A stretch of 64,000 bases of DNA from an uncultured Actinomycetota bacterium (GCA_963848085.1 CAWKCE010000003.1:999300-1063299); one strand, 5' to 3'; shown: positions 9,012-62,373, counted from the stretch's first letter. Translations and numbers: made by a program. The notes: generated by a model not told the origin, from the letters alone.

Positions 9012-9049
9012 CGCCCGCGGAACGGTCCGGCGCGCGTTGGATCGAGTGG

Positions 9050-43355: not shown

Positions 43356-46015
<2,660 letters not shown>

Positions 46016-46019
<4 letters not shown>

Positions 46020-46495
46020 TGCGTCCGGGGGTGCGGCTGGGGGTGGACCCGGGACGGGTCCGCATCGGCGTGGCGGTGTCGGACGCAGAGGGGCTGCTGG
46101 CGGTCCCCCTGGAGACCGTTCGCGCCGGGTCGGGCCAGTGGCGGAGGTTGGCCGAGCTGGCGGCAGAGACCGCCGCGGTCGAGATCGTCGTGGGGCTGCC
46201 GTTGCTGTTGTCCGGTGGTGAGGGGCGGTCGGCACACGACGCGCGCGACTTCGGGGGCAGGCTGGCGGAACGCACCGGGCTGCCGGTGCGTCTGGTCGAC
46301 GAACGGCTGAGCACGGTCGAGGCGTCCCGGTCCCTGCGCGGCGCTGGCCGGTCAACTCGTTCCAGCCGCACCGTCGTCGACCAGGCGGCGGCCGTGGTCG
46401 TCCTGCAGGCGGCATTGGACGCGGAACGGTCCTCCGGCGCCCCCTCCGGCGTCGAGGTCCTGGTGCCGCCTCGCCGAGACGAGGAGCCGACGTGA
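46016..46495 (+). CDS. ruvX: Holliday junction resolvase-like RuvX (YqgF)
   Basis: [16 protein letters not shown] and VVGLPL motifs. GTG 46016 or ATG 46019 overlaps the alaS stop. Confidence 0.85.
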
Positions 46496-47562
46496 CGGTT
46501 GCGGACGTCGACCCGACCATGGGCCGGCGGCGTTCCGGGCGTGCGGGATGGGTGCTCGCGGCCCTGGTCGCGGTCATCTTGGGCGGCCTGGTGGTCGGCG
46601 TGCTGCTGCTCGGCAACCTGCTGGGGAGCAACGCGCCGGACTACGCCGGGCCCGGGAGCGGCGAAGTCGTCGTCGAGGTGGTCAGCGGCGAGACCGCGAC
46701 CGACATCGGCGGGACCCTGGCCGCGGCGGACGTGGTGGCCAGCAGCGCCGCGTTCGTGGATGCGGCCGCCTCGGACGACCGCTCCTTGGGAATCCAGCCC
46801 GGCTTCTACCGGCTACGCCTCCAGATGTCGGGTGCCGGCGCGCTGGAGCTCCTGCTCGACCCGGCGGCGCGTGTGGAGAGTGTCGTCGTCGTGCCCGAGG
46901 GGCTGCGGGTGGACCAAGTAGTGGCTCGGCTGTCCAAGGGCACCGGGCTGACCCGCCGGGAGCTCTTTGCCGTTCTGGACCGGCCCGGGCCGCTCCGGCT
47001 GCCCCCGTACGCGGGCGGCTCGGCCGAGGGCTACCTGTTCCCGGCCACGTACACGTTCCCGCCCGACGTCACCGCGACCGAAGCGCTGCGGGCGATGGTG
47101 GACCGGTTCCGCGAGGCGGCCCGGGCGGTCGACCTGGTGGCGCGCGCCGCCGAGGCCGGTCACAGCCCGCACGACGTCGTCACGATCGCGAGCCTGGTGC
47201 AGGCCGAGGTTGCCGAGGCGGACTTCGGCACCGCGGCACGGGTGGTGGAGAACCGGCTGGACGTCGGGATGCCGCTCCAGTTCGACTCGACCGTCAACTA
47301 CGTGCTGCGCAGCAGTGACCTGACCCTCACGAACGACCAGCTGGCAGTCGACTCGCCTTACAACACCTACCGGTACCCGGGGCTACCACCAGGACCGGTG
47401 AACTCGCCAGGAGAGGCCGCTTTAGAGGCGGCGTTGGCCCCGCCGGAGGGCGACTGGCTGTACTTCGTCGCGGTGGCGCCCGGAAGCGACGAGACGCGTT
47501 TCACCGCGAGCTACGAGGAGTTCCTCCAGTTCAAGGCGGACTTCTACGCGCAGGTGCCGTGA
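46492..47562 (+). CDS. mltG: Endolytic murein transglycosylase MltG (YceG-like)
   Basis: N-terminal TM plus a YceG domain ([32 protein letters not shown]). Confidence 0.85.
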
Positions 47563-48386
47563 CGCCGCCGGTCCGGCGGGCTGGGGTCCTCGGTCATCCC
47601 GTCGCCCACTCGCTGTCACCGGCGCTGCACCGTGCCGCCTACCGCGAGCTGGGTCTGGACTGGGACTACCAGGCGATCGACGTGACGCCGGACCACCTCG
47701 CGGAGTTCCTCGACTCGCTGGACAGCCGGTGGGTCGGTCTGTCCCTGACGATGCCGCTGAAGGAGGCGGTGCTGCCCTTCCTGGCCAGCATCGACGACCT
47801 CGCCCGTCGGCTGGGCGTGGTCAACACCGTGCTGCTGGCGCCGAACGGGGCTCGCCACGGGGCCAACACCGACGTCCCGGGGCTGGTCCAGGTGCTGACG
47901 GAGGCGGAAGTCGCTGCCGGAGCCGATGTCACCCTCCTGGGGGGTGGGGCGACGGCGCGGTCGACGTTGGCTGCCCTCGGCATACACGGGGCGGGGCGGG
48001 TCACGGTGTGCGCGCGCCGCGCCGACGCGGGGCGGCAGCTCGTGGATCTCGGTGTCGAGCTGGGCCTGACGGTGCGGGCGAGGGGCTTCGACGAGGCCTC
48101 GGAGGCGCTGGCCGCGGACCTCGTCGTCGCCACGGTTCCCGCGGGCGCGACTGATGGGCTCGCGGCCTCGGTGCCGGCCCGGCCGGGGACGTTGGTGGAG
48201 GTCGTCTACGACCCGTGGCCGACCCGGCTCGCCGCCGGCTGGGCTGCGGCGGGCGGGTCAGTGGTGGGTGGGTTGGAGCTCCTGGTCCACCAGGCACACG
48301 AGCAGCTCTGGCTCATGACGGGCGAGCGGGTCCCGACTGACCTGCTGCGGGCCGCCGGGTCAGCGGCACTCGCGGACCGATCCTGA
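47559..48386 (+). CDS. aroE: Shikimate dehydrogenase
   Basis: GHPVAHSLSP..HRAAY, LSLTMPLK and NTD motifs. Conserved alaS-ruvX-mltG-aroE order. Confidence 0.85.
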   Translation: MTPPVRRAGVLGHPVAHSLSPALHRAAYRELGLDWDYQAIDVTPDHLAEFLDSLDSRWVGLSLTMPLKEAVLPFLASIDDLARRLGVVNTVLLAPNGARHGANTDVPGLVQVLTEAEVAAGADVTLLGGGATARSTLAALGIHGAGRVTVCARRADAGRQLVDLGVELGLTVRARGFDEASEALAADLVVATVPAGATDGLAASVPARPGTLVEVVYDPWPTRLAAGWAAAGGSVVGGLELLVHQAHEQLWLMTGERVPTDLLRAAGSAALADRS

Positions 48387-48431
48387 CGCGGGCGCACCCT
48401 GCCAGGATCGACTGATGGCTCTGCCCCGCTG

Positions 48432-48461
48432 GGGCTCAAGAGGAGCGGTGCGCCCGCCGAA
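48432..48461 (+). promoter_or_regulatory. Sigma-28-like promoter motif, site 1: GGGCTCAAG-N15-GCCGAA
   Basis: Intergenic, 61 nt upstream of ATG 48522. Same bipartite motif and exact 15-nt spacer as five other sites in the locus. Confidence 0.55.
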
Positions 48462-48521
48462 GCACAGACGGTGAGGCGGCACCGGTGGCGGTGCGGCCCC
48501 GGTGCTGGTGAAGGGTGCCCC

Positions 48522-49259
48522 ATGTCCGATCGATACGCCGCCGTGAGCGACCAGGTCGACCACCGCTCGGCGCGCTTGGAGCGAGTCCTGACGGCTCTGC
48601 TCGCCCAGGCCCCGGAGCTGGAGGCTGCAGCCGTGGTCTCGTTCGACGGCCTCCCCATGGCCGCTGCCCTGCCGGAAGGCATGGACGAGGACCGGGTGGC
48701 TGCCATGAGCGCGGCCCTGCTGTCGCTCGGGGAGCGGGCCGCCCAGGGACTCGGCCGTGGCGAGCTGTCCCAGGTCTACGTGGAGGGCGAGAGCGGAACG
48801 GTGTTCCTCGTCTCGGCCGACGACGAGGCCGTTCTGGTTGCTGTCGGAGCTCGCGGGGCCAAAGTGGGGCTCCTGCTGTTCGAAGTGCGCCACGCTGCCG
48901 CAGCGGTGGGGGAGACCCTGCGCCGAGAGCCGGATGTCACCCCGACGTACGACGAGGCCCCGGTGGACGAGCCGGAGTACGTGACCGAGGCGGTGGACGA
49001 GCCTGCCCCGGTGGACGAGCCGGAGTACGTGACCGAGGCGGTGGACGAGCCGGCGACGGAGCGCGAGTACTTCGCCGACGTGGAGTTCGAGCCGCAGGCG
49101 GAGCACGAGGTCGAGCCTCCCAGCGACGACGACGAGCCGCGGCCGGTGGACTACGTGCTGGCCGGCGACGACGAGGGGTCCGGCTGGGACGACGAATACG
49201 CCGACTTCGGCTCGATGCGTCAGCCCTCACGGGTCGCCCAGCCGACAACCTGGTCCTGA
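48522..49259 (+). CDS. Roadblock/LC7-domain protein (MglB/CvnB-like) with long acidic C-terminal tail
   Basis: LERVLTALL..ELEAAAVVSFDGLPMAAAL..DRVAAMSAALLSLGERAA..VYVEGESGTVFLV..VLVAVG fits the Roadblock pattern. Start at ATG 48522, downstream of the motif. The track ORF begins at GTG 48471. Confidence 0.75.
   Translation: MSDRYAAVSDQVDHRSARLERVLTALLAQAPELEAAAVVSFDGLPMAAALPEGMDEDRVAAMSAALLSLGERAAQGLGRGELSQVYVEGESGTVFLVSADDEAVLVAVGARGAKVGLLLFEVRHAAAAVGETLRREPDVTPTYDEAPVDEPEYVTEAVDEPAPVDEPEYVTEAVDEPATEREYFADVEFEPQAEHEVEPPSDDDEPRPVDYVLAGDDEGSGWDDEYADFGSMRQPSRVAQPTTWS
48960..49055 (+). repeat. 48-nt in-frame tandem duplication encoding PVDEPEYVTEAVDEPA twice
   Basis: The two units are identical at 46 of 48 nt. 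The differences are only in the third positions of the last two codons. Confidence 0.9.
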
Positions 49260-49316
49260 CCCAGGCGGCCCGCCGCTGACCCTCATCCCTACCGACGTCG
49301 AAGGAGTCGAGAACCC

Positions 49317-50564
49317 GTGAAGCTCGAGGGCTCGCTCGACGCGTTCAGCCTCCAGGACGTCTTCCAGCTGCTGAGCCTGACCAAGAAGTCCGGTGGGCTG
49401 CACCTGGCCAACGGCCAGGCAGTGGGGGTGGTCTACTTCGACAACGGTGCCATCACGGGGTCGGTGTCGGATGCCTCGCAGCAGGCACTGGCCAGGCGGC
49501 TGATCGGGATGGGCGCCTGTGACGACGCGGCGCTGCGGCGCGCGGTCGAGCGGGCCTGTGTGGAGCCGGTGGGTGTCGCCCGGGCACTCGTGGAGTCTGG
49601 TGGGGCCGACGCCGACGTCGTTCGAGAGCACGCCCTGGACCAGACTGTCGACTCCGTGTTCGACCTGCTGCGCTGGCCGGAGGGGGACTTCTCCCTCGCA
49701 GTCGGTGAGCCCAACCCCGACGACGTCGGAATTGCGGTTCCGGCGGAGAAGGTGGTGGCCGAGGCCAACGCCCGACGCGAAGCCTGGGAGGCCGTGTCGC
49801 GAGTGATCCCGTCCCCGGACGTCGTCCTCGTCATGCCGGTCGTCATTGCCGACGAACCCGGGGTGGGCCGCGACGAGTGGGCGTTGCTGGCCCTGGTCGA
49901 TGGCCGTCGAACCGTCGGTGAGCTGGTCGAGGTCAGCGGGGCCGGGACCTTCGCTGTGGTCTCCAAGCTCGCCCAGATGGTTCAGCGGGGGCTCCTCTCC
50001 CTGGCCGACGACGACTCGACCGACCACGTCACGCTGGTCCACCGCCGCCACCTGCTACTCGCACCGCTGGAACCGGCGTCGGCAACGGGCTCTCCCCACG
50101 AGTCGGCGCCCGAGCCCCTGGTTCGGACTGGCCGGGATGCCGACGGAGGCGGCGCCGCACGGCAGTCGCTCGCTCCCCAGGCGGACCCGGCGCCTCGCTC
50201 CGAGCCGGCCGTGGCCGCGGCTACTTTGGCGATCCCGCTCGTCGGCGGCGCGCACGCGCCCCGGGAGGTTGTGCCCACGCGCCATGAGCCGTTCCTGCCC
50301 CGGCGATCGGTCTCCCACCCCGAATCGCCTCCGGTCGATGCACCCGCCGCGGTGCCCTCAGCGGACACCCGCCGGCACCCGCCCGCCCCGGCCATGCCCC
50401 CACCCGGAGTGCGGACGGGCGTCCCGGCCGGGTACCCGACGACGGCCACCGGCACCATGGGCGCCGCCGCTGCGGCACCGAACGCGGACCCGACGATCCA
50501 GCCCGACCCGAACCTCAACCGCAGCCTGTTGCTGCGGCTCATCGCCGGTGTGAGGGGACTCTGA
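49317..50564 (+). CDS. DUF4388 (PATAN-type) domain protein with Pro/Ala-rich C-terminal half
   Basis: The N-terminus MKLEGSLDAFSLQDVFQLLSLTKKSGGLHL..GVVYFDNGAI is the remembered DUF4388 signature. AAGGAG lies 10 nt before GTG 49317. Confidence 0.7.
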   Translation: MKLEGSLDAFSLQDVFQLLSLTKKSGGLHLANGQAVGVVYFDNGAITGSVSDASQQALARRLIGMGACDDAALRRAVERACVEPVGVARALVESGGADADVVREHALDQTVDSVFDLLRWPEGDFSLAVGEPNPDDVGIAVPAEKVVAEANARREAWEAVSRVIPSPDVVLVMPVVIADEPGVGRDEWALLALVDGRRTVGELVEVSGAGTFAVVSKLAQMVQRGLLSLADDDSTDHVTLVHRRHLLLAPLEPASATGSPHESAPEPLVRTGRDADGGGAARQSLAPQADPAPRSEPAVAAATLAIPLVGGAHAPREVVPTRHEPFLPRRSVSHPESPPVDAPAAVPSADTRRHPPAPAMPPPGVRTGVPAGYPTTATGTMGAAAAAPNADPTIQPDPNLNRSLLLRLIAGVRGL

Positions 50565-50565
50565 C

Positions 50566-51141
50566 ATGGCGGGCAGCAAGCGGCGCCGGCACGGCGGGCA
50601 GGCGGTGAAGGTGGTCATCACCGGGCCGTTCGCCGCCGGCAAGACCACGTTGATCCGCAGCATCAGCGAGATCACGGTGCTGTCCACGGAGCGGGGGATC
50701 ACCGACGAGACCCGGGCCCGCAAGAACGACACCACCGTGGCCATGGACTTCGGGCGCATCACCGTTGACCGTGACCTCGTCCTCTACCTGTTCGGGACGC
50801 CGGGGCAGGAGCGGTTCGACTTCATGTGGGAGATCCTTGGGGAGGGGATGCTCGGCTATGTCGTGCTGCTCGACGCCGACCGCCCCGACTCGTTGCAGGA
50901 GGCCAAGGGAATCCTGGACGCCTTCCGGCGCATGGCCCGCGTCCCGTTCGTCCTGGCACTGAACCGTTCGGACGGCATCGACGACGTCGAGGAGGCTCGG
51001 ATCCGACAGACCCTCGACGTCGACGGTTCGGTTGCGCTTGTCCCGTGCGACGCCACCGACAAGGAGTCGGTCAAGGCGGTCCTCCTGGCGCTGCTGTACA
51101 GCGTCCTCGACCAGGTGGAAGCCGCGCCGGCCGGGGTGTGA
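50566..51141 (+). CDS. MglA/CvnD-like small Ras-superfamily GTPase (ATP/GTP-binding protein)
   Basis: G1 GPFAAGKTT, G2 TTVAMDF, G3 LFGTPGQERF (TPGQ in place of DxxGQ, as in MglA TVPGQ), G4 LNRSD. The ATG is one base after the upstream stop. Confidence 0.8.
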   Translation: MAGSKRRRHGGQAVKVVITGPFAAGKTTLIRSISEITVLSTERGITDETRARKNDTTVAMDFGRITVDRDLVLYLFGTPGQERFDFMWEILGEGMLGYVVLLDADRPDSLQEAKGILDAFRRMARVPFVLALNRSDGIDDVEEARIRQTLDVDGSVALVPCDATDKESVKAVLLALLYSVLDQVEAAPAGV

Positions 51142-51166
51142 GCCCCGTCGCGCCGGCTGGACGGCC

Positions 51167-51448
51167 ATGACCCTGTTCCGACGGTCGTCCCGGGGGCGTC
51201 ACGCGGAGGGCCGGGCTGCCCGGCCGCCCACTCCCACGTTCCCCGAGGCGACGGCGACGGCACCGGTTCCCGAGCCGGTGAGCCGCGGCCTGGTCCGCAT
51301 CGTGTTCCGTGATGGCAGCGCCATGGCGCTCGATGCGCATGATCCACGCGCGGCCCCGTTCCGAGCCCTCGCAGACAGCATGTGGGCATCCCCCGCGTCA
51401 GCTGTCGGTGAGCCAGGCTCGGCGCGGGACGACCCCGGCGAGGATTGA
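51167..51448 (+). CDS. Small hypothetical protein (93 aa), last gene of the GTPase operon
   Basis: ATG 51167 is 25 nt after the GTPase stop. The ORF ends before the next promoter motif. No family recognised, and coding status is uncertain. Confidence 0.35.
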   Translation: MTLFRRSSRGRHAEGRAARPPTPTFPEATATAPVPEPVSRGLVRIVFRDGSAMALDAHDPRAAPFRALADSMWASPASAVGEPGSARDDPGED

Positions 51449-51465
51449 GCAGGCGAACCGCCGTC

Positions 51466-51496
51466 GGGCCTTCAGCCCCCGGCCAGGACGGCCGAT
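51466..51496 (+). promoter_or_regulatory. Sigma-28-like promoter motif, site 4: GGGCCTTCAG-N15-GCCGAT
   Basis: Intergenic, upstream of pilB. The -35-like half is degenerate, but the spacer is exactly 15 nt. Confidence 0.45.
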
Positions 51497-51581
51497 TGGG
51501 TCCTGAGGCGTCACGTACGCGGGCCCCCGCGCTCTCGTGTCGCCCGAGCTACCGCCTCCTACCAGTGGGAAGGACCGTCCG

Positions 51582-53261
51582 GTGAAGCAGCTCGGCGACA
51601 TCCTGTTGGACCAGGGACTGCTCACGCAGATTGAGCTGGATGCTGCCTACACCGAGCACCAGCGGGCGGGGAAGCCGCTGGGCCGTGTCCTCGTCGACCA
51701 GCAGGTGGTCACTCAGTCGCAGCTGATGGCCGCGCTGGCCGAGCAGATCGGCATGGAGTTCGTGGACCTGGGCGACTACCCCGTGGACGGAAGCCTGATC
51801 GCCCGCGTTCCGGGGGTGCTGTGTCGCAAGCACTCGGTGGTGCCGCTGCGGATCGAGAACGGCGTCCTGCTGTTGGCGATGGCAGACCCGGCGAACATCT
51901 TCGCCGTCGACGACGTGCGCACCACCCTGCGCGAGCAGGGCATGGTCGTCGACGTCAAGACGGCAGTGGCCACCAAGGCTGACGTGGTCGCGGCCATCGA
52001 CCGGTACTACCGGAACGACGACCAGATGGACGACCTCCAGACCGCCCTGGAGGCGGAGGACGAGGAAGAAGACCTGGCGAGCCTTCGCGAGGTCGTCGAG
52101 GACGCACCCATCGTCAAGTATGTGAACCTGCTGATCACCCAGGCGATCCAGGACCGCGCATCGGACATCCACCTGGAACCCGGGGAGTACGCACTCAACG
52201 TTCGGTACCGGATCGACGGTGTCCTGCACGACGTGATGACCTCGGGCAAGAACATCCAGGCGGCGGTGATCAGCCGGCTGAAGATCATGTCCGACATCAA
52301 CATCGCCGAGCGTCGCATCCCCCAGGACGGGCGCCTGTCGGTGACCCATCTCGGGAACAAGATTGACCTTCGCGTCGCCACGCTGCCGACGGTGTGGGGG
52401 GAGAAGGTCGTCATGCGTGTGCTCGACAACTCAACCGCACGGCTCGACCTGTCCGACCTCGGGTTCTCGGACCACAACTACCGGACATTCGAGGAGAGCT
52501 ACCGCAAGCCCTACGGGATGATGCTGGTCACCGGCCCCACCGGTTCCGGCAAGTCGACCACGCTGTACGCCACGCTGAACCAGATCGCCCGCCCCGAGGT
52601 GAACGTCATCACCGTCGAGGACCCGGTGGAGTACCGACTGCCCGGCGTCAACCAGGTCCAGGTCAACAACAAGGCCGGGCTGAGCTTCGCCGCGGCCCTG
52701 CGGTCGATTCTCCGCTGCGACCCGGACATCGTGCTTATCGGTGAGATCCGTGACCACGAGACGGCACAGATCGCCGTGGAGGCGGCGTTGACCGGTCACC
52801 TGGTGCTGTCGACGCTGCACACCAACGACGCGCCGTCGGCGGTGACTCGGCTCACCGAGATGGGGCTGGAGCCCTTCCTCGTCGGCTCGGCCCTCGACTG
52901 CGTCCTCGCACAGCGGTTGGCGCGGCGGTTGTGCACCAAGTGCCGAGAGCCGTACCAGCCGAGCCCGGAGTCCCTCGTCCAGGCCAAGTACACCTGGGAG
53001 GACGGGATGCCGGTGCCCACGCTGTACCGAGCCATCGGGTGCTCCGCCTGCTCGAAGACCGGATACAAGGGACGGCTCGCTCTGCACGAGGTCATGCCGG
53101 TCTCCGAGGAGATCGAGCGCCTGGCGGTCGAGCGGGCCTCGGCCACGGCGATTGGTGACGTTGCGCGCCAGCAGGGCATGTTGACGCTGCGCGACGACGG
53201 AATGCTGAAGGTCTCGCAGGGTGTCACCTCCATGGACGAGATCCTGCGCGTCGTCGTCTGA
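51582..53261 (+). CDS. pilB: Type IV pilus assembly ATPase PilB (GspE family)
   Basis: GSPII_E N-terminal domain, Walker A GPTGSGKSTT, VNVITVEDPVEY, Walker B IVLIGEIRD, and the tetracysteine CxxC..CxxC. Start at GTG 51582 (RBS GGGAAGGA), or GTG 51537. Confidence 0.9.
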   Translation: MKQLGDILLDQGLLTQIELDAAYTEHQRAGKPLGRVLVDQQVVTQSQLMAALAEQIGMEFVDLGDYPVDGSLIARVPGVLCRKHSVVPLRIENGVLLLAMADPANIFAVDDVRTTLREQGMVVDVKTAVATKADVVAAIDRYYRNDDQMDDLQTALEAEDEEEDLASLREVVEDAPIVKYVNLLITQAIQDRASDIHLEPGEYALNVRYRIDGVLHDVMTSGKNIQAAVISRLKIMSDINIAERRIPQDGRLSVTHLGNKIDLRVATLPTVWGEKVVMRVLDNSTARLDLSDLGFSDHNYRTFEESYRKPYGMMLVTGPTGSGKSTTLYATLNQIARPEVNVITVEDPVEYRLPGVNQVQVNNKAGLSFAAALRSILRCDPDIVLIGEIRDHETAQIAVEAALTGHLVLSTLHTNDAPSAVTRLTEMGLEPFLVGSALDCVLAQRLARRLCTKCREPYQPSPESLVQAKYTWEDGMPVPTLYRAIGCSACSKTGYKGRLALHEVMPVSEEIERLAVERASATAIGDVARQQGMLTLRDDGMLKVSQGVTSMDEILRVVV

Positions 53262-53277
53262 CTAGTTCGATCACCCT

Positions 53278-53307
53278 GGGCTTAAGGGGTGACCACCTTG
53301 CGCCGAT
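53278..53307 (+). promoter_or_regulatory. Sigma-28-like promoter motif, site 5: GGGCTTAAG-N15-GCCGAT
   Basis: Intergenic, 73 nt upstream of pilT GTG 53380. Confidence 0.55.
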
Positions 53308-53379
53308 GGCTCCGGGGAGACGTGCCCCCGCCGTGGGGGCACCGGACCGCCGCCTGCGGCGTATGAAGGAGGCTCGCTC

Positions 53380-54987
53380 GTGGAGACCTCGGGATTCAGT
53401 GGCGCGACGCCGGACCAGTCGGTGGACGACGTCTCGACCGACACCGACGCGGCTTCGGACGTGTTCACCCCGGCGCCAGCACCCTCCTTCGACCCCGGGT
53501 CTGCCCTGCTGGCCCCGGAGGAGCCGGAGACCGCAGGATCGTCCGGGCTCCCCATGTCCTTGACGATCGCCGCCGAAGAGGCAGCCACCGTCGACCTGCC
53601 GGTGGAGGAGCCCAGCCGCGGATCGACGTACGAGTCGTTCTACGACCCGCAGGAGGCAACGGCCGCACCGGACGTGACGGAGGGGGAGCCGGCCAGCCCG
53701 GACCCGATGGAGCAGTGGCGCGCTGAGGCTGCCCTGGACGCCGGGGCGCCCGCCGCGCCGGCCGACCAGGGAGCGGACGAGCTGGTTACCCAGCCGGCGC
53801 CACCAGCGGACGACGTTGCCCCCGAATCCGTCGACGAGGACGGTGGGGTAGCCCTCGCGGACTCCGAGGCAGACGAGGCGTCCTACAACCGGGTCAGCAC
53901 CGAGCCCGTCCTGGGCGGTGAGGACATCGTCCTGGTCGACCTGCTGCTCACCATGCTGGAGCGTGGGGCGTCCGACCTCCACATCACCGCAGGTGCCCGC
54001 CCGGCGATCCGGGTCGATGGAGAGCTCTCCCAGATGGACGAGTTCCCTGTGCTGACGCCGCCGGTCATCCAGCGCGTGATGTACGCGGCGATCACGCAGC
54101 GTCAGCGGGAGATCTTCGAAGAGGTCCTGGAGCTGGACTTCGCCTACTCGGTCCCGGGTCGGGCGCGATTCCGCGTCAACATGTACCGGCAACGGGATGC
54201 GATCGGTGCTGCGTTCCGCATCATCCCATTCGAGATCAAGCCCCTCGAGGACCTCGGGGTCCCCAGCACAGTGGCCAACTTCGCGATGCTGGCACGCGGT
54301 TTCGTGCTGGTGACCGGACCCACCGGATCCGGCAAGTCCACGACCCTCGCGTCATTGGTCGACCTGGCGAACCGCAACCGCCAGGACCACATCATGACCT
54401 GTGAGGACCCGATCGAGTTCCTCCACCGGCACCGGAGCTGCCTGGTCAACCAGCGCGAGGTGGGGGAGGACACGCACTCGTTCCAGAACGCGCTGAAGCA
54501 TGTGCTGCGGCAGGACCCCGACATCATCCTGGTCGGCGAGATGCGTGACCTGGAGACCATCTCGGTCGCCCTTACCGCGGCTGAGACCGGCCACCTCGTC
54601 TTCGCGACCCTGCACACGCAGGATGCGGCCCAGACCATCGACCGGGTCATCGACGTGTTCCCCCCTCACCAGCAGCAGCAGGTGAGGGCCCAGCTGGCGA
54701 CCGCGATCCAAGGGGTCGTCTGCCAGACACTCGCCAAGAGTGCGGACGGTCGAGGTCGGGTCGTCGCGTGTGAGGTGATGGTGGCCACACCAGCAATCCG
54801 GAACCTGATCCGTGAGGGCAAGACCCACCAGATCTACAGCGCCATGCAGGCCGGCGCGAAGTTCGGGATGCAGACGATGGACCAACACCTGGCGGACCTG
54901 GTGAACAAGGGCCGCATTACCCACGAGATGGGTATCGAGAAGTGCCACCACATCGAAGACTACAAACGCCTCACCGGGCGCGGCTGA
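53380..54987 (+). CDS. pilT: Twitching-motility retraction ATPase PilT with ~180-aa acidic N-terminal extension
   Basis: Core from about residue 181: ASDLHITAGARPAIRVDGEL, GPTGSGKSTT, ILVGEMRD, and the PilT-specific AIRNLIREGK. RBS GAAGGAGG lies 7 nt before GTG 53380. Confidence 0.9.
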   Translation: METSGFSGATPDQSVDDVSTDTDAASDVFTPAPAPSFDPGSALLAPEEPETAGSSGLPMSLTIAAEEAATVDLPVEEPSRGSTYESFYDPQEATAAPDVTEGEPASPDPMEQWRAEAALDAGAPAAPADQGADELVTQPAPPADDVAPESVDEDGGVALADSEADEASYNRVSTEPVLGGEDIVLVDLLLTMLERGASDLHITAGARPAIRVDGELSQMDEFPVLTPPVIQRVMYAAITQRQREIFEEVLELDFAYSVPGRARFRVNMYRQRDAIGAAFRIIPFEIKPLEDLGVPSTVANFAMLARGFVLVTGPTGSGKSTTLASLVDLANRNRQDHIMTCEDPIEFLHRHRSCLVNQREVGEDTHSFQNALKHVLRQDPDIILVGEMRDLETISVALTAAETGHLVFATLHTQDAAQTIDRVIDVFPPHQQQQVRAQLATAIQGVVCQTLAKSADGRGRVVACEVMVATPAIRNLIREGKTHQIYSAMQAGAKFGMQTMDQHLADLVNKGRITHEMGIEKCHHIEDYKRLTGRG

Positions 54988-55001
54988 GACAGGAGCGACC
55001 C

Positions 55002-56225
55002 ATGGCGACAACGACGACATACCAGTACTCGGTCCGCGACAAGGCGGGCAAGGTCGTTTCCGGAACCCTTGATGCGGACTCGCCGACGGCGGTGGCTGCG
55101 AAGCTGAAGCAGCTGGGCTACACCCCGGTCAGCATCGCCGAGCACAAGCCCGGAATGAAGCGCGAGCTCAAGGTGCCCGGCTTCGGCGGCAAGGTGAAGC
55201 TGAAGGACCTGGCCGTGATGTCTCGCCAGTTCGCGACCATGATTAACAGCGGGCTGTCGCTGCTCCGAGCCCTCAACATCCTCTCGGAGCAGACACCCAA
55301 CCCCAAGCTGGCCGAAGTCCTGCGCGAGGTGCGCAACGAGGTCGAGACCGGCAACGCGCTGTCAGCGGCGATGGGAAACTTCCCCGACGTCTTCCCGCCA
55401 CTGATGGTCAACATGATCAAGGCCGGAGAGGTTGGCGGGTTCCTGGACCAGGTGCTGCTGCAGATCGCGGCCAACTACGAGGCTGAAGTACGGCTGAAGG
55501 GCAAGGTCAAGTCGGCTATGACCTACCCGGTGGTCGTCTTCGTGATGGCGATCCTGGCCGTCGTCGGCATGCTCTTGTTCATCGTTCCGGTGTTCGACAA
55601 GATGTTCGACGGACTGGGCGCAGACCTACCGGCCCCCACCCAGATGCTGGTCAACCTGTCCAACCTGCTGAAGACGTTCTTCCCGGTTCTGATCGTCATG
55701 CTCGTCGTCGGATCCTTCGTCTGGCGGAAGGTCAAGCGCACCGACCGGGTGCGGAACGTGGTTGACCCGCTGAAGCTGAAGATCCCGGTCTTTGGACCGT
55801 TGTTCCAGAAGATCGCCCTCAGCCGGTTCACGCGTAACTTCGGAACCTTGCTGCACGCCGGTGTGCCGATCCTGCAGAGCCTGGACATCGTGGCGGACAC
55901 GTCAGGGAACGTGGTCGTCGCGCGTGCCGTCCGGGACGTCCAGGAGAGCGTGCGCAACGGCGAGTCGCTCACCGGACCCCTCGCGCAGCACGCAATCTTC
56001 CCGCCGATGGTCGTGCAGATGCTGGCCGTCGGGGAGGACACCGGTGCGCTCGACGCGATGCTGCACAAGATCAGCGAGTTCTACGACCAGGAGGTCGAGT
56101 CCACGACCGAGTCCCTGACGGCGCTCATCGAGCCGTTGATGATCGCGGTTCTTGGTGGCCTGGTCGGCAGCATGATCATCGCCTTGTACATGCCCATCTT
56201 CAAGGTCTTCGACCTCATCGGGTAG
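55002..56225 (+). CDS. pilC: Type IV pilus platform protein PilC (GspF family)
   Basis: Two GspF repeats (..FSRQFATMINSGLSLLRAL.. and ..FTRNFGTLLHAGVPILQSL..) and three TM segments. 407 aa. Confidence 0.9.
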   Translation: MATTTTYQYSVRDKAGKVVSGTLDADSPTAVAAKLKQLGYTPVSIAEHKPGMKRELKVPGFGGKVKLKDLAVMSRQFATMINSGLSLLRALNILSEQTPNPKLAEVLREVRNEVETGNALSAAMGNFPDVFPPLMVNMIKAGEVGGFLDQVLLQIAANYEAEVRLKGKVKSAMTYPVVVFVMAILAVVGMLLFIVPVFDKMFDGLGADLPAPTQMLVNLSNLLKTFFPVLIVMLVVGSFVWRKVKRTDRVRNVVDPLKLKIPVFGPLFQKIALSRFTRNFGTLLHAGVPILQSLDIVADTSGNVVVARAVRDVQESVRNGESLTGPLAQHAIFPPMVVQMLAVGEDTGALDAMLHKISEFYDQEVESTTESLTALIEPLMIAVLGGLVGSMIIALYMPIFKVFDLIG

Positions 56226-56267
56226 GCGGCTCGGCGAGTCCGGTTCGTGACCAATTCGCCCGGTCGA

Positions 56268-56297
56268 GGGCTCAAGTCCAGCGTCCCGCCAGTCGAA
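56268..56297 (+). promoter_or_regulatory. Sigma-28-like promoter motif, site 2: GGGCTCAAG-N15-GTCGAA
   Basis: Lies in the 251-nt pilC-pilA gap, about 180 nt upstream of the pilA ATG. Confidence 0.5.
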
Positions 56298-56476
56298 ACC
56301 TCCAGTGTCATAGAGCCAACCGGCCAGAACGGGCACACCCGTCGCGAGGCGGGGTCGCAAAGCCAGGGGACCCATGTGGTCGGCCTAGCTGCCTCGGTCG
56401 GCACTCCACCCGGAGCGCCGCAGAGGGCCAGAAGGACCGCTCGGCTCATCAACCTCATCCGGAGGAGAACAACAGC

Positions 56477-56896
56477 ATGATCGCTCGTATCCGCAAGGCC
56501 CAGGAGGAGCGCGAGGGTGGCTTCACCCTCATCGAGCTCCTGGTCGTTGTCATCATCATCGGTATCCTCGCCGCGATCGCCATCCCGGTGTTCCTGAACC
56601 AGCGTCAGAAGGCCGTCGACTCGTCGATGAAGGCCGACGCTCGCGCAGTGGCCAACGAGATGGAGACCGCGTTCACCGACACGCAGGTCTACCCAGTCAG
56701 CTTTGCCGGGGTCTCTGCTTCCGTCAAGCTGTCGCCCGGAAACGCGGCGACCGTTGTTCGGTCGACCATCGGGTCGTCCTACTGCGTGACCATCACCCGC
56801 ACCGCGGGGTCGCAGCCCGGCTCGCAGGCGAACTGGGTGTACGACAGCAACGACGGTGGCCTTCAGGGCCCCGGCGTGGCTTGCGTCGACAACTGA
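56477..56896 (+). CDS. pilA: Type IV major pilin (prepilin with class III signal peptide)
   Basis: MIARIRKAQEEREGG/FTLIELLVVVIIIGILAAIAIPVF: G-1, F+1, E+5 and a hydrophobic helix. 139 aa with two Cys in the C-terminal part. RBS GGAGGAG. Confidence 0.9.
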   Translation: MIARIRKAQEEREGGFTLIELLVVVIIIGILAAIAIPVFLNQRQKAVDSSMKADARAVANEMETAFTDTQVYPVSFAGVSASVKLSPGNAATVVRSTIGSSYCVTITRTAGSQPGSQANWVYDSNDGGLQGPGVACVDN

Positions 56897-56912
56897 TCGA
56901 CTGCTCAACCGT

Positions 56913-56944
56913 TTCGGGGTCGCACCTTCGGGTGCGGCCCCGAA
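56913..56944 (+). terminator. Intrinsic-terminator-like hairpin after pilA (14-bp stem, TTCG loop)
   Basis: ttcggggtcgcacc-ttcg-ggtgcggccccgaa, with one G-U pair. Starts 17 nt after the pilA stop. No U-tract. Confidence 0.6.
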
Positions 56945-56966
56945 CCACGTTCACCCGGAAGCACTG

Positions 56967-56992
56967 TCAAGGCCGACCGGCTCACTGCCGAT
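56967..56992 (+). promoter_or_regulatory. Sigma-28-like promoter motif, site 6: TCAAG-N15-GCCGAT
   Basis: Lies between the pilA terminator hairpin and the minor pilin operon, about 45 nt upstream of GTG 57037/57043. Confidence 0.5.
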
Positions 56993-57036
56993 GAAAGGTC
57001 TCGAGGGTCGTTCGGCCCTGCCTCATCGAAGGGGGA

Positions 57037-58590
57037 GTGGGCGTGCTCCAGCACTGGCGCAACCGGATCCGCCGGGACGACGCCGGCATCAGCCTGGTCG
57101 AGATGCTGGTGGCGCTCGTCGTCACCTCCATCGCCTTCACCGCTCTCGCCGCCGCCATCTTGACCGGTGTCCGCTCGGCGCAGACGGCGACCGTGGTGAC
57201 CGCCGGCAACCAGCTCGCGTCCGAGCAGGTGGAGCGGCTTCGTGCGATCGACTGGTCGCTGCTGGGGCACTACGCAGACGAGCCCGGCTGGGGCAGCGGG
57301 TACTACGGTGGCGAGAACCTGGTGATGGTCGCTGCGACGACGCCCAGCCCCCGCCCCGTTGAGGTCCCGTACCTGGCCGCGCAGACGGTCACGATCAAGA
57401 ACGTCGCCTACTCGGTCACGACCCGGGTCACCTGGGCGGGGTCCTCCGTCGGTACGCCGAACACGGGCGCCACGTACGCGAGCAAGCGGATCACCGTGAC
57501 GGTGACCTCCGACTTCCGTGGCCAGACCCGCACGAGCACCCAGACCGCTCTGCGGACGCCGAACGCCAAGGAGATGAAGCCACCCAGCGCCGCGGGGGCG
57601 ACCCCGATCAGCATCACCACGTCCAGCGTGAGCCCGAACCAGCCGCTCGGCCCGAACGGTGAGCTGACCCAAGAGCTCATCCTGCTGGCGTCCACGTCGG
57701 TCGTCGCGCAGGACGTGACCGCGACCTACACCCTGGCAACGGGAGCGACGGCAACGACCGCACTGGCCCCGGACGCCACCGCCAAGCTGTGGACGATCCG
57801 GCTACCGGTGGGCACCGGTCCGTTCACGCCTGGAACCGCCGTCTTCACGTACACGGCCACCCACGCTTCCGGGTCGACGACGACCGCGAGCGCGCAGGTC
57901 CAGTTCACCGCGTACAGCGGCTCGTTCACGCTCAACAACCCGAACGCCAGCACGACCTACAGCCAGCTGGCGGTCGACTACACGCTGGCCGCGCCGATCA
58001 CGGTGTCGGTCACGACGTCCGACCCGGCCACCGTGGTCACCGGGACCTACCCCTTGAGCAGCGGCTCCGACGGCACGCTGACCTTGACCGGCGGCCCCAC
58101 CAACTGGACCGGGTCCATCCCCATCGGGGCCGGACCCATCACGGCAGGCAACCTGACGATCACGCTGAGCGCGACCTCCGTCGGTGGGAGCACGGCGACG
58201 GCGACGGCGGCCGTGGTCCTCCAGGCGCCGTCGCTGGGGGCGATCGAGATCGTTGGGCTGACCGCCTCGCCGAACCTGTGCACCAAGCAGAGCGGCGGCT
58301 ACCCGACCTGGCGTGACTCGACCCTCACCGCCGAGGTGAAGAACGTCTCCGCCACGACCGGCACCGTGACGATCAAGCTGGGTGCGGACGCGGCGGTGAC
58401 CGCGACCGCCGTCGGCGCCATCGGAGGCTCCGGCGGGCAGCTGTTCCGGATCACCGTCCCGACCGGCCACGCGATCCCGACCGCACCGGTCACCGTGCAG
58501 GTGGTGGCGACGCGCACGGCCGACTCGGCGACGCAGAGCCGTGACTTCCCGGTCCCGGTGACGCGGAAGAACTCGGTGAACGCATGCTGA
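57037..58590 (+). CDS. Large (517 aa) prepilin-type minor pilin with three Thr/Ala-rich ~105-aa repeats
   Basis: RRDDAG/ISLVEMLVALVVTSIAF class III signal with E+5. The C-terminal 320 aa form three tandem repeats. Start at GTG 57037 or 57043. Confidence 0.8.
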   Translation: MGVLQHWRNRIRRDDAGISLVEMLVALVVTSIAFTALAAAILTGVRSAQTATVVTAGNQLASEQVERLRAIDWSLLGHYADEPGWGSGYYGGENLVMVAATTPSPRPVEVPYLAAQTVTIKNVAYSVTTRVTWAGSSVGTPNTGATYASKRITVTVTSDFRGQTRTSTQTALRTPNAKEMKPPSAAGATPISITTSSVSPNQPLGPNGELTQELILLASTSVVAQDVTATYTLATGATATTALAPDATAKLWTIRLPVGTGPFTPGTAVFTYTATHASGSTTTASAQVQFTAYSGSFTLNNPNASTTYSQLAVDYTLAAPITVSVTTSDPATVVTGTYPLSSGSDGTLTLTGGPTNWTGSIPIGAGPITAGNLTITLSATSVGGSTATATAAVVLQAPSLGAIEIVGLTASPNLCTKQSGGYPTWRDSTLTAEVKNVSATTGTVTIKLGADAAVTATAVGAIGGSGGQLFRITVPTGHAIPTAPVTVQVVATRTADSATQSRDFPVPVTRKNSVNAC

Positions 58591-59201
58591 ACAGACTCCG
58601 CAGGAGCCGCTCCGGCAGCCGTGACGCCGGGTACTCCCTAGTCGAGATGCTGGTGGTCGTGGTGATCCTCGGCGTGGTCAGTGCCGTGGTAAGCGCCGCG
58701 ATCATCAGCAGCCTCCGGGTGCAGCAGGTGACCGAGTCGAACGTGACCTCGATGGCCGGTGCGCGCACCGCCATCGAGCGGATGTCGCGTGACATCCGGA
58801 CCGCCAACCCGCTACGGACCGCCGAGGCGAACGTCATCAGCTTCGACATGTACTACGGGACCAGATGCGAGCGCCGCACCTACTCGGTGGTCGCGGGCTC
58901 GATCGTCCTCAGCCGGGCGCAGTTCGCTGCGGGTGTGCGGTGTGGCGCGCCCGGGGCGGTCCCCGGTGCGGCGACCACGAGCACGGTCATCGAGGACGTC
59001 ACGAACACGACTGCGGCGCCGCTGTTCCGGTACTACCGGTGGGACACCGCCACCAAGACCCGTGTCGAGTCGACCGCGCCGGTGACCGTCGGGCTGACGT
59101 CGGTCGACACCGTCCGGATCAACGCGCTCGTCTCGGCCCTGCGGCAGGGCGACGTCGGAGTCCAGGCCCTGGTCGACCTCAGAAACGTGGAGATCAAATG
59201 A
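58584..59201 (+). CDS. Prepilin-type minor pilin (PilW/GspJ-like size)
   Basis: SRDAG/YSLVEMLVVVVILGVVSAVV class III signal with E+5. Its ATG overlaps the upstream gene by 7 nt. Confidence 0.8.
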   Translation: MLNRLRRSRSGSRDAGYSLVEMLVVVVILGVVSAVVSAAIISSLRVQQVTESNVTSMAGARTAIERMSRDIRTANPLRTAEANVISFDMYYGTRCERRTYSVVAGSIVLSRAQFAAGVRCGAPGAVPGAATTSTVIEDVTNTTAAPLFRYYRWDTATKTRVESTAPVTVGLTSVDTVRINALVSALRQGDVGVQALVDLRNVEIK

Positions 59202-60364
59202 TGGCTTTCCGCAACCGCCTCCTGCGCTCGGGGAGGGACGACCGAGGGTCAATGCTCCTCGCGCTGTCCGGCGTCCTCGTGGTGACCGGGATCATGATGG
59301 CCTTCCTCGTGACGGTCCTCATCGCCCAGGACTCCACGCGGCACGACTACCGGTACACCAAGTCCATCCAGGGTGCGGACGCCGGCGTTCAGCAGGCGTA
59401 CTACCAGATCAACACGCTGCCGGCCGGGTCGACCAGCACCTCCCTGACGTCTGGTGGCACCGTCACGCTGGACGGCGTCGACTACTTCTGGACCGCAGCC
59501 CGTCCGGCCGCCGAGTCGCTCACCTGGACCGTGGAGTCCACGGGGACGACCACGGTCGGGACGCAGACGACCACGCGCACGGTGACGGCGACGATCGGCC
59601 AGAGCGCGCTGTTCAACATGGCGGCCTTCGCCGACTCCACGCTGAACTTCAACGGCAACAACCTCGCCACCTCCTACCCCGCTCCCGGCCAGGGGCAGAT
59701 CGGCACCAACGGGTCGATGACCCTCCTGGGGAACTCGACCTCGGTGGACGCGGTGGTCCTGTACGACTACGACGCGAACCCGGACCCCAGCCGGTGCACC
59801 GGGGCCGCCTGCAGCGCGCCGACGACCACGAACGGCAGCAAGCTGGACATCGCCGGCGCGGCCGCTACCGACGGGTTCATCCAGGCGCAGCTCGACGCCT
59901 GCAAGGCGGTCGCGCCGCTCACCGCGTTCGTCGGCACGACCATTGCTGCCCGGCCGGAGCCCTACTGCTTCACCTCCTTCTTCGCCGACACGCAGAACTT
60001 CACGGTCACGGGGCCAGGCACGGCACGCATCTTCGTCGAAGGTGGGGACGTCGTGCTCGGCAACAAGAACCACAGCGACGTGAACAACGACGTCCCCGGG
60101 ACACCGACGTCGGTGAAGCTGCAGATCTACACCACCGGCCAGACGGTCAGCATGTACAACCAGGGCGAGATCGCGGCCGCGGTGTACGCACCGAACGCCG
60201 CCTGCGGCGGTGTCACCTCGAACGCCGGCACGACCTTCTACGGGTCCATGATCTGCAAGACGATCGACAACGTCGGTGGCTGGACGTTCAAGTACGACAC
60301 GCGACTGTCCAGCATCGGCGACGGGATCTGGCGTTTGAAGGACTACTCGGAGCCCGGCGCCTGA
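59198..60364 (+). CDS. PilX-N-like pilus-associated protein (no Glu+5)
   Basis: DDRG/SMLLALSGVLVVTGIMMAFLV hydrophobic N-terminus followed by an A..AG.QQAYYQIN helix, as in the PilX N-terminal domain. ATGA overlap with the upstream gene. Confidence 0.6.
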   Translation: MMAFRNRLLRSGRDDRGSMLLALSGVLVVTGIMMAFLVTVLIAQDSTRHDYRYTKSIQGADAGVQQAYYQINTLPAGSTSTSLTSGGTVTLDGVDYFWTAARPAAESLTWTVESTGTTTVGTQTTTRTVTATIGQSALFNMAAFADSTLNFNGNNLATSYPAPGQGQIGTNGSMTLLGNSTSVDAVVLYDYDANPDPSRCTGAACSAPTTTNGSKLDIAGAAATDGFIQAQLDACKAVAPLTAFVGTTIAARPEPYCFTSFFADTQNFTVTGPGTARIFVEGGDVVLGNKNHSDVNNDVPGTPTSVKLQIYTTGQTVSMYNQGEIAAAVYAPNAACGGVTSNAGTTFYGSMICKTIDNVGGWTFKYDTRLSSIGDGIWRLKDYSEPGA

Positions 60365-61311: not shown

Positions 61312-62373
61312 GTGGCAGGACGAACCGCCATCGGTCTCGACATCGGGACATCGGGTGTGCGCGCCGCCGAACTTGTGTTCGGCAAGTCAGGCATCACCCT
61401 CGAGAAGTTCGGCCAGGTCGCGCTGCCCGCAGGCGCGGTCCGAGACGGCGAGGTCATCGACGTCGCCACTGTGGCCGAGGCGATCAAGCAGCTGTGGGCC
61501 CACACGAAGTTCAGCAGCAAGAAGGTCGTGGTCGGCGTCGCGAACCAGAAGGTCCTGGTCCGTGCAGTGTCGCTTCCCGCTGCCCCGCTGGACGAGATCA
61601 AAGAGACCCTCGCGTACCAGGTGACCGACCAGATTCCCATGGCCGTCGAGAACGCGCTGTTGGACTTCTACCCCCTCGACGAGGCCGAGGAGGGTGGGCG
61701 CCAGGTCGTGCGCGGCCTGCTCGTCGCGGCGGCTCGGGACATGGTCACCACCCAGCTGGCCGCTGTTCAGCAGGCCGGACTCACCCCGCACATGGTCGAC
61801 CTCACGGCGTTCGCCGTCCTCCGTTCGCTGGCGGACAACGACAGCCTGGGAATGGGCGCTCCGCTGGAGGCTCTGATCGACGTCGGGGCACGGGTGACCA
61901 ACATCGTGCTGCACCAAGGCGGGGTGCCTCGGTTCGTCCGCATCCTGCAGATGGGCGGACAGGACGTCACCGACGCGGTAGCCGACCGCACGGGCTCCTC
62001 CCAGGCTGAGGCCGAGGAGCTGAAGCGCGAGCTCGGGATGAGCGCGCACGGCGCTGATCCCGACCAGATGGCCGCCGGACGCGTGATGGAGGCCGCCGGC
62101 AAGGCGTTCGCCGAGCAGGTTCGCGGCTCGCTGGACTTCTACGCCGCCTCTCCGGGCGGCCAGCAGGTCGACCGCATCGTTCTCACCGGCGGCGGGTCAC
62201 GTCTCGGCGGTCTCGCCGAAGCCCTCCAGGAGGTGAACCGGGTGGAGGTCACCCGGGGACACGCCTTCTCGGACCTGACGCTGGGACGCACCGGGCTCAC
62301 CCCCGAGCAGGTGCAGTTCGTCGAGCCGGCCGCCTCCGTGCCGGTCGGCCTGGCTCTCGGAGGCGTGGCATGA
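61312..62373 (+). CDS. pilM: Type IV pilus assembly protein PilM (actin-like ATPase fold)
   Basis: IGLDIGTSGVRAAEL, GARVTNIVL and LTGGGSRLGGL motifs. 353 aa. Confidence 0.85.
   Translation: MAGRTAIGLDIGTSGVRAAELVFGKSGITLEKFGQVALPAGAVRDGEVIDVATVAEAIKQLWAHTKFSSKKVVVGVANQKVLVRAVSLPAAPLDEIKETLAYQVTDQIPMAVENALLDFYPLDEAEEGGRQVVRGLLVAAARDMVTTQLAAVQQAGLTPHMVDLTAFAVLRSLADNDSLGMGAPLEALIDVGARVTNIVLHQGGVPRFVRILQMGGQDVTDAVADRTGSSQAEAEELKRELGMSAHGADPDQMAAGRVMEAAGKAFAEQVRGSLDFYAASPGGQQVDRIVLTGGGSRLGGLAEALQEVNRVEVTRGHAFSDLTLGRTGLTPEQVQFVEPAASVPVGLALGGVA

Follow-up and report, generated by a model that had tools for sequence, protein, structure and literature searches.

What is a small-GTPase module doing at the head of a type IV pilus locus? 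The question is raised by a stretch of 64,000 nucleotides (nt) from an uncultured Actinomycetota bacterium (GCA_963848085.1, CAWKCE010000003.1:999300-1063299), referred to as a whole as the window, in which open reading frames (ORFs) were called mechanically. The interval 48522-51448 contains four + strand ORFs, which encode a Roadblock/LC7 protein, a DUF4388 (PATAN) protein, a small GTPase and a small conserved protein, orf4; downstream lies a type IV pilus locus that starts with pilB. Genomic context argues for control of the pilus by this module. The best explanation, which we hold with moderate confidence, is a nucleotide switch that is made together with PilB and acts on this extension motor by way of the PATAN protein as an adaptor.

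The Roadblock/LC7 gene (48522..49259; 245 amino acids (aa)), the gene for the PATAN(DUF4388)-winged-helix-tail protein (49317..50564; 415 aa), the gene for an MglA-family small GTPase (50566..51141; 191 aa) and orf4 (51167..51448; 93 aa) are all on the + strand. The intergenic gaps are 57 nt (Roadblock-PATAN), 1 nt (PATAN-GTPase, the PATAN stop codon lying 1 nt ahead of the GTPase start), 25 nt (GTPase-orf4) and 88 nt (orf4-pilB). Profile searches place the first three proteins in families: the Roadblock protein matches Pfam Robl_LC7 with 65.7 bits (cut-off 23), the PATAN protein DUF4388 with 70.7 bits (cut-off 25; the family is named PatA_N in the Pfam matches at related loci), and the GTPase Pfam ATP_bind_1 with 73.7 bits, Ras with 34.1 bits and NCBIfam small_GTP with 47.5. 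The GC content at third codon positions (GC3) of these three genes is 0.86-0.93, in a window of ~70% GC. The fourth gene was recognised by alignment of relatives and an iterated hidden Markov model (HMM). A first-pass annotation of this DNA, made from the sequence alone, had described three same-strand genes of these families with gaps of 57, 1 and 25 nt ahead of pilB, and a GTPase with G3 motif TPGQ and G4 motif NRSD; the ORF map, the Pfam searches and the GTPase alignment agree with it on each count. Its account of the interval is incomplete in one respect, namely that the real, conserved fourth gene at 51167-51448 was left undescribed.

The GTPase has a P-loop GPFAAGKT, G3 TPGQ (with Thr for the usual Asp and the catalytic Gln kept), G4 NRSD and G5 DAT. 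As in the MglA family, its G3 is of the Thr type, and a Robl_LC7 gene lies two genes 5' of its own. In the alignment, LFGTPGQERF is invariant across the actinobacterial clade, one conservon CvnD, and the PATAN-linked GTPases of Thermus and Deinococcus. The G4 motif is more variable, occurring as NRSD, NRLE, NRTD or NRAE (all with Arg for Lys), and as TRQD in a homologue on a Thermus plasmid.

In the Roadblock protein, a CvnB/MglB-type domain (residues ~23-130) is followed by an acidic, repeat-bearing tail. The mechanical ORF runs from GTG 48471; ATG 48522 is preferred as the start because a GAAGGG ribosome-binding site lies 6 nt upstream and a predicted promoter further 5'. The tail is unconserved, with tblastn matches in related loci spanning only the N-terminal ~120 aa. 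Inside it lies a perfect 48-bp tandem duplication (48957-49051; 2.0 copies, 100% match) that encodes APVDEPEYVTEAVDEP two times.

Module and pilus genes are tied by a shared promoter motif. Comparison of k-mers in intergenic regions yielded GGGCT(C/T)AAG, followed 15 nt on by G(C/T)CGA(A/T). In the form GGCTYAAG-N15-GYCGAW it has four matches in 64 kb against 0.11 expected, a number that none of 100 shuffles reached; all four (48433, 53279, 56269 and 61213) are on the + strand and intergenic. Each is a predicted sigma-28 (WhiG/FliA)-type promoter: P1 (48433..48461) stands 5' of the Roadblock gene, P2 (53279..53307) 5' of pilT, P3 (56269..56297) 5' of the major pilin gene and P5 (61213..61241) 5' of pilM/pilN/pilO. 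A looser predicted WhiG-type site, TMAA-N16-GCCGA, is found on the + strand 5' of the minor-pilin gene (56967..56991); this looser pattern has three occurrences where 0.37 would be expected, a number attained by 2 of 100 shuffles. The consensus reported for WhiG/FliA in Actinomycetota is T(A/C)AA-N16-GCCGA (WhiG2) or CTCA-N16-17-GCCGA (WhiG1), counted as a promoter when it lies no more than 200 bp from a start codon (PMC12871210). P1 reads GGCTCAAG-N15-GCCGAA and holds TCAA-N16-GCCGA, so that the site 48436-48460 is an exact match to this consensus, 62 nt ahead of ATG 48522. The motif thus matches a sigma-28-type promoter, as a prediction from sequence. The first-pass annotation had stated, with the motif left unspecified, that the module carries the same promoter motif as the pil genes, and the match counts bear this out.

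Control of pili by WhiG/FliA has precedents in this phylum. WhiG-type promoters have been mapped within the Rubrobacter pilus cluster (PMC8325347), and for Actinoplanes WhiG-type pilus promoters have been reported, with predictions for several further families (PMC12871210). The window resembles these cases in its motif and in having several such promoters in one pil cluster; it differs in lineage, since the carriers considered here (Acidothermaceae, Sporichthyaceae, Frankiales and Nanopelagicales-like metagenome-assembled genomes (MAGs)) lie outside the families that the two papers name for pili. A term search of both papers for a Roadblock, PATAN or GTPase module as a member of the regulon came up empty. 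A sigma-70 consensus scan of 48200-57100 gave zero sites, and the annotated parts of the window yielded no whiG or rsiG gene.

Is the module transcribed with pilB? Of 97 distinct related loci, 64 have the strict form CTYAAG-N15-GYCGA in the aroE-Roadblock interval and a further 23 have a loose form there. In 81 of 108 related loci the strict form also stands between pilB and pilT, and 67 of 71 short gaps between the GTPase gene and pilB are devoid of the motif. In the window, no terminator-like site separates module and pilB; the two terminator-like matches in the scan of 48200-57100 both fall within the Roadblock gene, no more than chance predicts. Because the motif is usually found ahead of the Roadblock gene but not immediately ahead of pilB, we infer that module and pilB are co-transcribed as one operon. 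The simplest reading is a first pil transcription unit composed of P(WhiG-type)-Roadblock-PATAN-GTPase-orf4-pilB; located between a sigma-28-type promoter and pilB, the module would be made together with the extension motor.

The arrangement is widely conserved. Loci were drawn from a species-representative genome collection in two sets, 80 from an alignment-based PATAN scan and 80 from a scan with Acidothermaceae PilB, and the window proteins were mapped onto them; the alignment-based scan was needed because a genome scan with the single PATAN protein found only one distant Ktedonobacterales locus. Among 101 distinct loci that bear the GTPase gene and at least 400 nt of downstream sequence, pilB lies downstream of the GTPase gene on the same strand in 94, in the order alaS-ruvX-mltG-aroE-[Robl-PATAN-GTPase-(orf4)]-pilB-pilT-pilC. 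The GTPase-to-pilB gap in these has a median of 402 nt; it is below 1 kb in 73 and 1-9.8 kb in 21. In Acidothermaceae bacterium B102 (AP028633.1) and Frankiales BP_356, record coordinates put pilB 12-14 kb downstream on the same strand, beyond a glycosylation island; of the other five loci, the state of pilB is undecided in three and the sequence ends early in two. The module was never seen in this sample with pilB shown to be absent. A class of modules without pili was considered and dropped: the apparently pilB-less loci carry glycosylation islands, and pilB was found further downstream in both cases that could be checked. Co-conservation of the triad with pilB, pilT and pilC in related genomes is strong.

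The Roadblock-PATAN-GTPase architecture is kept in 84+13 distinct loci, and the GTPases of the related loci compared are 70-87% identical, in records labelled with several orders and families. These labels include Acidothermaceae, Acidothermus, Sporichthyaceae, Frankiaceae/Frankiales, Motilibacteraceae, Candidatus Nanopelagicales, Mycobacteriales, Longivirga aurantiaca and many Actinomycetes MAGs. In an Acidothermus sp. MAG (L088), whose GTPase is 73% identical to that of the window, the module is directly joined to pilB.

Within this conserved unit, orf4 is, as judged from its conservation, a real gene of the module. Its alignment has a basic N-terminus, MTxFRRSxRGRHA, a variable Pro-rich linker and a core, VRLxFxDGSxxxLxxxDPRxxAFRALA. 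With the iterated HMM it is found directly after the GTPase gene in 70 of the 101 distinct loci, 48 of them with a score of at least 40, and never in module-less loci. In several loci with a glycosylation island after the module (L004, L070, L073, L083), orf4 stays beside the GTPase gene. It has no Pfam match and only four close database relatives, and its AlphaFold2 (AF2) model is of low confidence (predicted local distance difference test (pLDDT) 64), in which residues 42-73 form a strand-strand-helix core. A PilZ-like identity, considered for its RxxxR ... DxSxx pattern, was dropped because the ordered core comprises only ~30 residues and the motif Gly is missing.

A further link within the module concerns the C-terminus of the PATAN protein. 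Its PATAN domain, with a four-helix insertion, occupies residues 1-160; a winged-helix-like domain follows at residues ~165-235 according to the AF2 model and alignments (model of residues 1-250: pLDDT 87.7, predicted template modelling score 0.80; helices 185-223 plus a strand). Beyond lie a Pro/Ala-rich linker with motif 1, GGAHxPxDVVPxRxEPFLPxR (nt ~50217-50321), and the C-terminal motif 2, IERDPxVNRSLMLRLIAGVRGL (nt 50472-50561). Across related loci, motif 2 and the GTPase gene are both present in 97 and both missing in 11, with no discordant case, in a tally of loci that are kin to each other and so do not amount to 108 independent events. The losses fall under different taxon labels (Micrococcales-like, Frankiaceae and Mycobacteriales). 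We take this co-occurrence as a sign that the C-terminal tail works together with the GTPase.

Several reduced modules were seen beside these, at the same aroE/pilB site. Loci L133, L135, L136, L138, L144 and L152 (~8100-9900), as well as L101, L107, L119, L145 and L150, lack both the GTPase gene and the C-terminal motif; some consist of a divergent Roadblock and PATAN pair (~30% identity), others of PATAN alone. In L108 and L139, PATAN and GTPase genes are present with no detectable Roadblock gene.

The winged-helix-like domain could instead mean DNA binding, which weighs against an adaptor role and leads to a different reading: the PATAN-winged-helix protein would bind DNA with its activity under the control of GTPase and Roadblock, as in a conservon-like system without the kinase, and would regulate pil or other genes with no contact to the motor. 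The order of the genes, Robl-X-GTPase, parallels that of cvnB-cvnC-cvnD, and in hhalign a DUF742 protein (CvnC) aligns with the winged-helix region, non-significantly (E 0.09, probability <1%); Pfam gives no DUF742 match on this segment even at E<=5. Transcription has also been proposed as the output of a Group 3 MglA partner with a REC-like and a winged-helix domain by Wuichet & Sogaard-Andersen 2014 (PMC4316618). However, the matches of the region to MarR_2 and other helix-turn-helix (HTH) profiles are weak and all under curated cut-offs, Han et al. make a case against DNA binding for PatA-type PATAN proteins (10.1101/2021.06.11.447907), and MglA systems exert their effect through the localisation of proteins rather than through transcription (PMC13343842). 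A conserved operator-like repeat was neither searched for nor seen, and the sigma-28-type motif already explains the pil promoters. A transcriptional regulator is thus an improbable alternative.

A Foldseek search of the AF2 model of the PATAN protein against the PDB found nothing significant (best E 0.22), and short matches to the N-terminus of Xanthomonas PilB (47 columns, E 3.4) and to GATOR/SEA subunits were discounted as evidence. BLASTP detected no similarity between the helical insertion and the N-terminus of the window's PilB. The hhalign comparison of the PATAN profile with the single Thermus and Deinococcus partner sequences was uninformative; Pfam calls DUF4388 in the Thermus protein.

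How does the module relate to known systems? The survey of Wuichet & Sogaard-Andersen (2014; PMC4316618) defines five MglA groups and lists MglB>PATAN>MglA as the usual neighbourhood of Group 5 in Aquificae, Chloroflexi, cyanobacteria and Deinococcus-Thermus (Table S2), with Group 5/MglB/PATAN modules in at least six phyla. Table S2 also lists a Group 5 member from Acidothermus cellulolyticus 11B, Acel_1323 (printed 'Accl_1323'), a 193-aa GTPase in the arrangement <MglA<PATAN<MglB. The module of the window shares with Group 5 its three components, often in the same order, the G3 TPGQ and the adjoining PATAN gene, a frequent though not obligatory neighbour in Group 5; it differs in its G4, NRSD, where the survey gives [NT]KxD for Group 5. 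As Table S2 lists the Acidothermus triad and the Acidothermus MAG carries the module joined to pilB, the module thus appears, from its sequence features, to be an instance of the catalogued 'MglA Group 5 + MglB + PATAN' kind, with Acel_1323 taken as the same module from its listed neighbourhood.

The survey gives no function for Group 5 modules and records the three-gene neighbourhood only; where searched, it mentions no pilus operon, sigma-28-type promoter, fourth gene or PATAN C-terminal motif. The possibility of a link between PATAN/MglAB and the pilus was raised, and left open, by Han et al. (2021), who observed that MglA/MglB genes often adjoin PATAN genes (10.1101/2021.06.11.447907). Triads also occur on plasmids. 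On Thermus thermophilus plasmid pTthSNM1-7b (L162 4360-6489), DUF4388, GTPase and Roadblock genes are followed by a protoglobin-domain gene; on a Deinococcus aetherius plasmid (L163 4279-5926), the same GTPase and Roadblock genes come after an unannotated weak-HTH protein. Given the Group 5 catalogue with Acel_1323, the earlier suggestion of Han et al. and the plasmid triads, the designation 'undescribed regulatory system' in the first-pass annotation was overstated, while its family calls, synteny and shared promoter hold; it was also right that no characterised Roadblock, PATAN and GTPase switch for actinobacterial type IV pili can be cited, as none was found in our literature search. The actinobacterial placement in the pilus operon, the sigma-28-type promoter on the module, orf4 and the PATAN C-terminal motif go unmentioned in the literature searched; they may be published elsewhere, and the module type itself is already catalogued.

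Another close known system is the Group 1 MglA-MglB polarity module of Myxococcus xanthus and Thermus thermophilus, which likewise pairs a Ras-like GTPase with a Thr-type G3 and a Roadblock-fold regulator. In Myxococcus and Bdellovibrio, type IV pili are under the control of MglA/MglB (PMC4316618), Group 1 governing their formation and polarity. The present module differs in that its GTPase matches solved MglA structures weakly (E 0.006) and no MglB chain among solved structures matched its Roadblock protein at E<=1. Moreover, genes for RomR/RomX, SgmX or Frz partners are missing here, the host is monoderm, and the module sits within the predicted pil operon instead of at a separate chromosomal site.

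Conservons (CvnA-D; PMC13343842) comprise a kinase-like sensor, a Roadblock protein, a DUF742 protein and a GTPase. They too are actinobacterial, with a CvnB-type Roadblock protein, an ATP_bind_1 GTPase and the same order of Roadblock, middle protein and GTPase. The solved structures nearest to the Roadblock protein of the window, namely 7f8m, 9jue and 3leq (CvnB5), are actinobacterial and CvnB-type, and the GTPase is ~45% identical to Streptomyces conservon CvnD proteins, the most similar among annotated proteins of a plasmid collection, compared with 38% to the PATAN-linked GTPase on the Thermus thermophilus plasmid. In contrast, no CvnA histidine-kinase-like sensor gene is present, the flanks being aroE and pilB, and the middle protein is PATAN plus winged helix, not a Pfam-recognisable DUF742 protein; the absence of CvnA and CvnC had been stated in the first-pass annotation. 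The G4/G5 motifs are NRSD/DAT as opposed to NxFD/DAR (NCFD and DAR in Streptomyces CvnD), and the 8-residue insertion of CvnD between G1 and G2 is missing. With no kinase gene, no Pfam-recognisable DUF742, other G4/G5 motifs and no G1-G2 insertion, the module is not a conservon.

Might it then be the remnant of one, a non-functional cvnABCD cluster that lost its kinase and is carried along? The similarity of the GTPase to CvnD and of the Roadblock protein to CvnB5 would fit. Yet the four genes are intact with high GC3, the GTPase is strongly conserved across related loci under several order and family labels, and the published phylogeny (PMC4316618) puts the Acidothermus module, taken as the same, in Group 5, not Group 2. 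The degenerate conservon is rejected as a very remote prospect, effectively refuted by the G4/G5 motifs and the strong conservation.

For the PATAN component, the cyanobacterial PatA-type regulators PixG, PixE and LsiR offer a parallel: they share a PATAN domain with helical insertion and are linked genetically to type IV pili. In Synechocystis PixE, the PATAN domain binds the N-terminal domains of PilB1 and PilC and, alone, reverses phototaxis; PATAN is the output in these regulators, binding the N-terminal domains of PilB and PilC (10.1101/2021.06.11.447907). The PATAN protein of the window differs in having no receiver domain (no Response_reg match in Pfam, the C-terminal part consisting of winged helix and low-complexity tail), and its input would be the GTPase rather than phosphorylation by a chemosensory kinase.

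This picture is complicated by a number of observations that weigh against a switch dedicated to the pilus. Among 142 distinct loci, 25 lack the module altogether, pilB coming straight after aroE (e.g. Actinotalea, Cellulomonas and Kineosporiaceae), and partial modules take the form of Roadblock plus PATAN in six, PATAN only in five and PATAN plus GTPase without Roadblock in five. Since such junctions and reduced modules exist, the module is dispensable for pilus assembly, an accessory at a fixed aroE/pilB site. The aroE cluster and the pil locus adjoin with or without it, so position alone cannot assign it to pil rather than aroE. The 21 loci with an island of 1-10 kb between module and pilB mean that strict co-transcription with pilB is not universal, and the one-operon form cannot hold where a large island intervenes. 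The Thermus and Deinococcus plasmid triads have no pil neighbours. Moreover, because PATAN and PilB homologues served as anchors in the sampling and the loci are related by descent, the locus counts are not independent events.

Many of these points would suit a module that controls polar growth, envelope or glycan synthesis, or general polarity, and merely occupies a permissive site between aroE and pil. Besides the junctions with and without module, islands of glycosyltransferase, flippase and Wzy_C genes insert at this very site, right after the module, and the Thermus and Deinococcus triads stand in unrelated contexts beside protoglobin and HD-domain genes. Such a neighbourhood by history is nevertheless unlikely. 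The module promoter is conserved and of the same sigma-28 type as those of pilT, pilin and pilM, whereas pilB is generally without a promoter of this type of its own; no locus of the sample has the module with pilB shown to be missing, and the affinity of PATAN for PilB and PilC was shown experimentally in another phylum (10.1101/2021.06.11.447907).

How might a nucleotide switch made with PilB operate? The GTPase would cycle between GTP and GDP under a Roadblock dimer serving as GTPase-activating protein and/or platform; this dimer, possibly with orf4, would set the state of the GTPase. The PATAN protein would read that state, probably via its C-terminal motif, and its PATAN domain would engage the N-terminal part of PilB and/or PilC, with the outcome that the timing or place of pilus extension is set. 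We infer all of these protein contacts, and the effect on the pilus. The switch would be post-translational and would lie beneath two layers linked to cyclic di-GMP (c-di-GMP), namely the WhiG-type promoter and an MshEN-type motif in PilB.

The second layer is suggested by PilB itself (51537..53261, + strand), which matches T2SSE with 463 bits and MshEN with 72.5 bits, and TIGR02538 with 638 bits, under the cut-off of 675.65; its gene is without a WhiG-type promoter of its own. Its N-terminus (residues ~18-70; 51537-51750) matches the MshE-related c-di-GMP-binding motif model NF053729 with 51.5 bits (cut-off 38), as well as MshEN. As this match is above cut-off, the motor itself may be a c-di-GMP receptor, a putative role beside a type of promoter that c-di-GMP controls in other Actinomycetota.

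A more specific version, which we offer tentatively and with some doubt, is a dedicated G-protein gate on the monoderm extension motor. The GTP-bound GTPase would capture the PATAN C-terminal motif and thereby free the PATAN domain or place it at the PilB N-terminus or at PilC; the nucleotide state would be set by the Roadblock dimer together with orf4, and the whole would be stacked under RsiG-WhiG and MshEN c-di-GMP inputs. If true, this would provide the first function for MglA Group 5 systems, for whose modules no experimental test later than the 2014 survey was found, and would establish, as a general rule, that PATAN domains serve as adaptors to the type IV pilus motor in different phyla, which is so far an open suggestion from cyanobacterial data. 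To our knowledge, placement in the pilB unit behind a pilus- and c-di-GMP-linked promoter is the clearest genomic evidence so far for a link between PATAN and the pilus. It concerns monoderm Actinomycetota, in which type IV pilus regulation is otherwise little studied. Cultured carriers for testing are Acidothermus cellulolyticus 11B, Acidothermaceae B102 and Longivirga aurantiaca.

The pilus locus downstream comprises, by Pfam and NCBIfam, pilB, pilT, pilC, pilin, minor pilins, a DUF7305 protein, the prepilin peptidase pilD, pilM, pilN and pilO; the window ends within the locus, and this list covers the portion up to the window end. With PilB/T/C, PilM/N/O, a prepilin peptidase and N-methylated pilins, it encodes a type IVa-like monoderm pilus. 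The retraction ATPase PilT (53380..54987, + strand) matches TIGR01420 with 481.5 bits over residues 185-524. No profile matched its N-terminal extension of ~180 aa (residues 1-184; 53380-53930), which is variable: tblastn matches in relatives often begin well within the protein. The platform protein PilC (55002..56225, + strand) matches T2SSF with 232 bits; its likely start is ATG 55002, the mechanical ORF running from 54942. Further on the + strand are the major pilin gene with an N_methyl motif (56477-56896), the minor-pilin gene with the looser WhiG-type site upstream (57037-58590), and pilM (61312-62373), followed by pilN and pilO. Among the minor pilin genes, a 499-aa protein (58865-60364) has a C-terminal DUF7305 match; it overlaps the preceding ORF in the mechanical list.

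The islands between module and pilB, of which the window has none, contain genes for glycosyltransferases, a Polysacc_synt flippase, Bac_transf and an O-antigen-ligase-like Wzy_C protein in the loci examined (for example L004 8900-15925, L002 8978-10801, L072 12453-20829 and L070 12097-21162), and may be pilin glycosylation islands. Upstream of the module, the window has rarA-like, alaS, ruvX, mltG and aroE genes, with aroE as the immediate neighbour. The series alaS-ruvX-mltG-aroE (43356-48386 in the window) precedes the pil locus in every examined locus whose upstream flank was available, including those of Cellulomonas and Actinotalea, which suggests an ancient pil insertion site within an aromatic amino-acid/housekeeping cluster.

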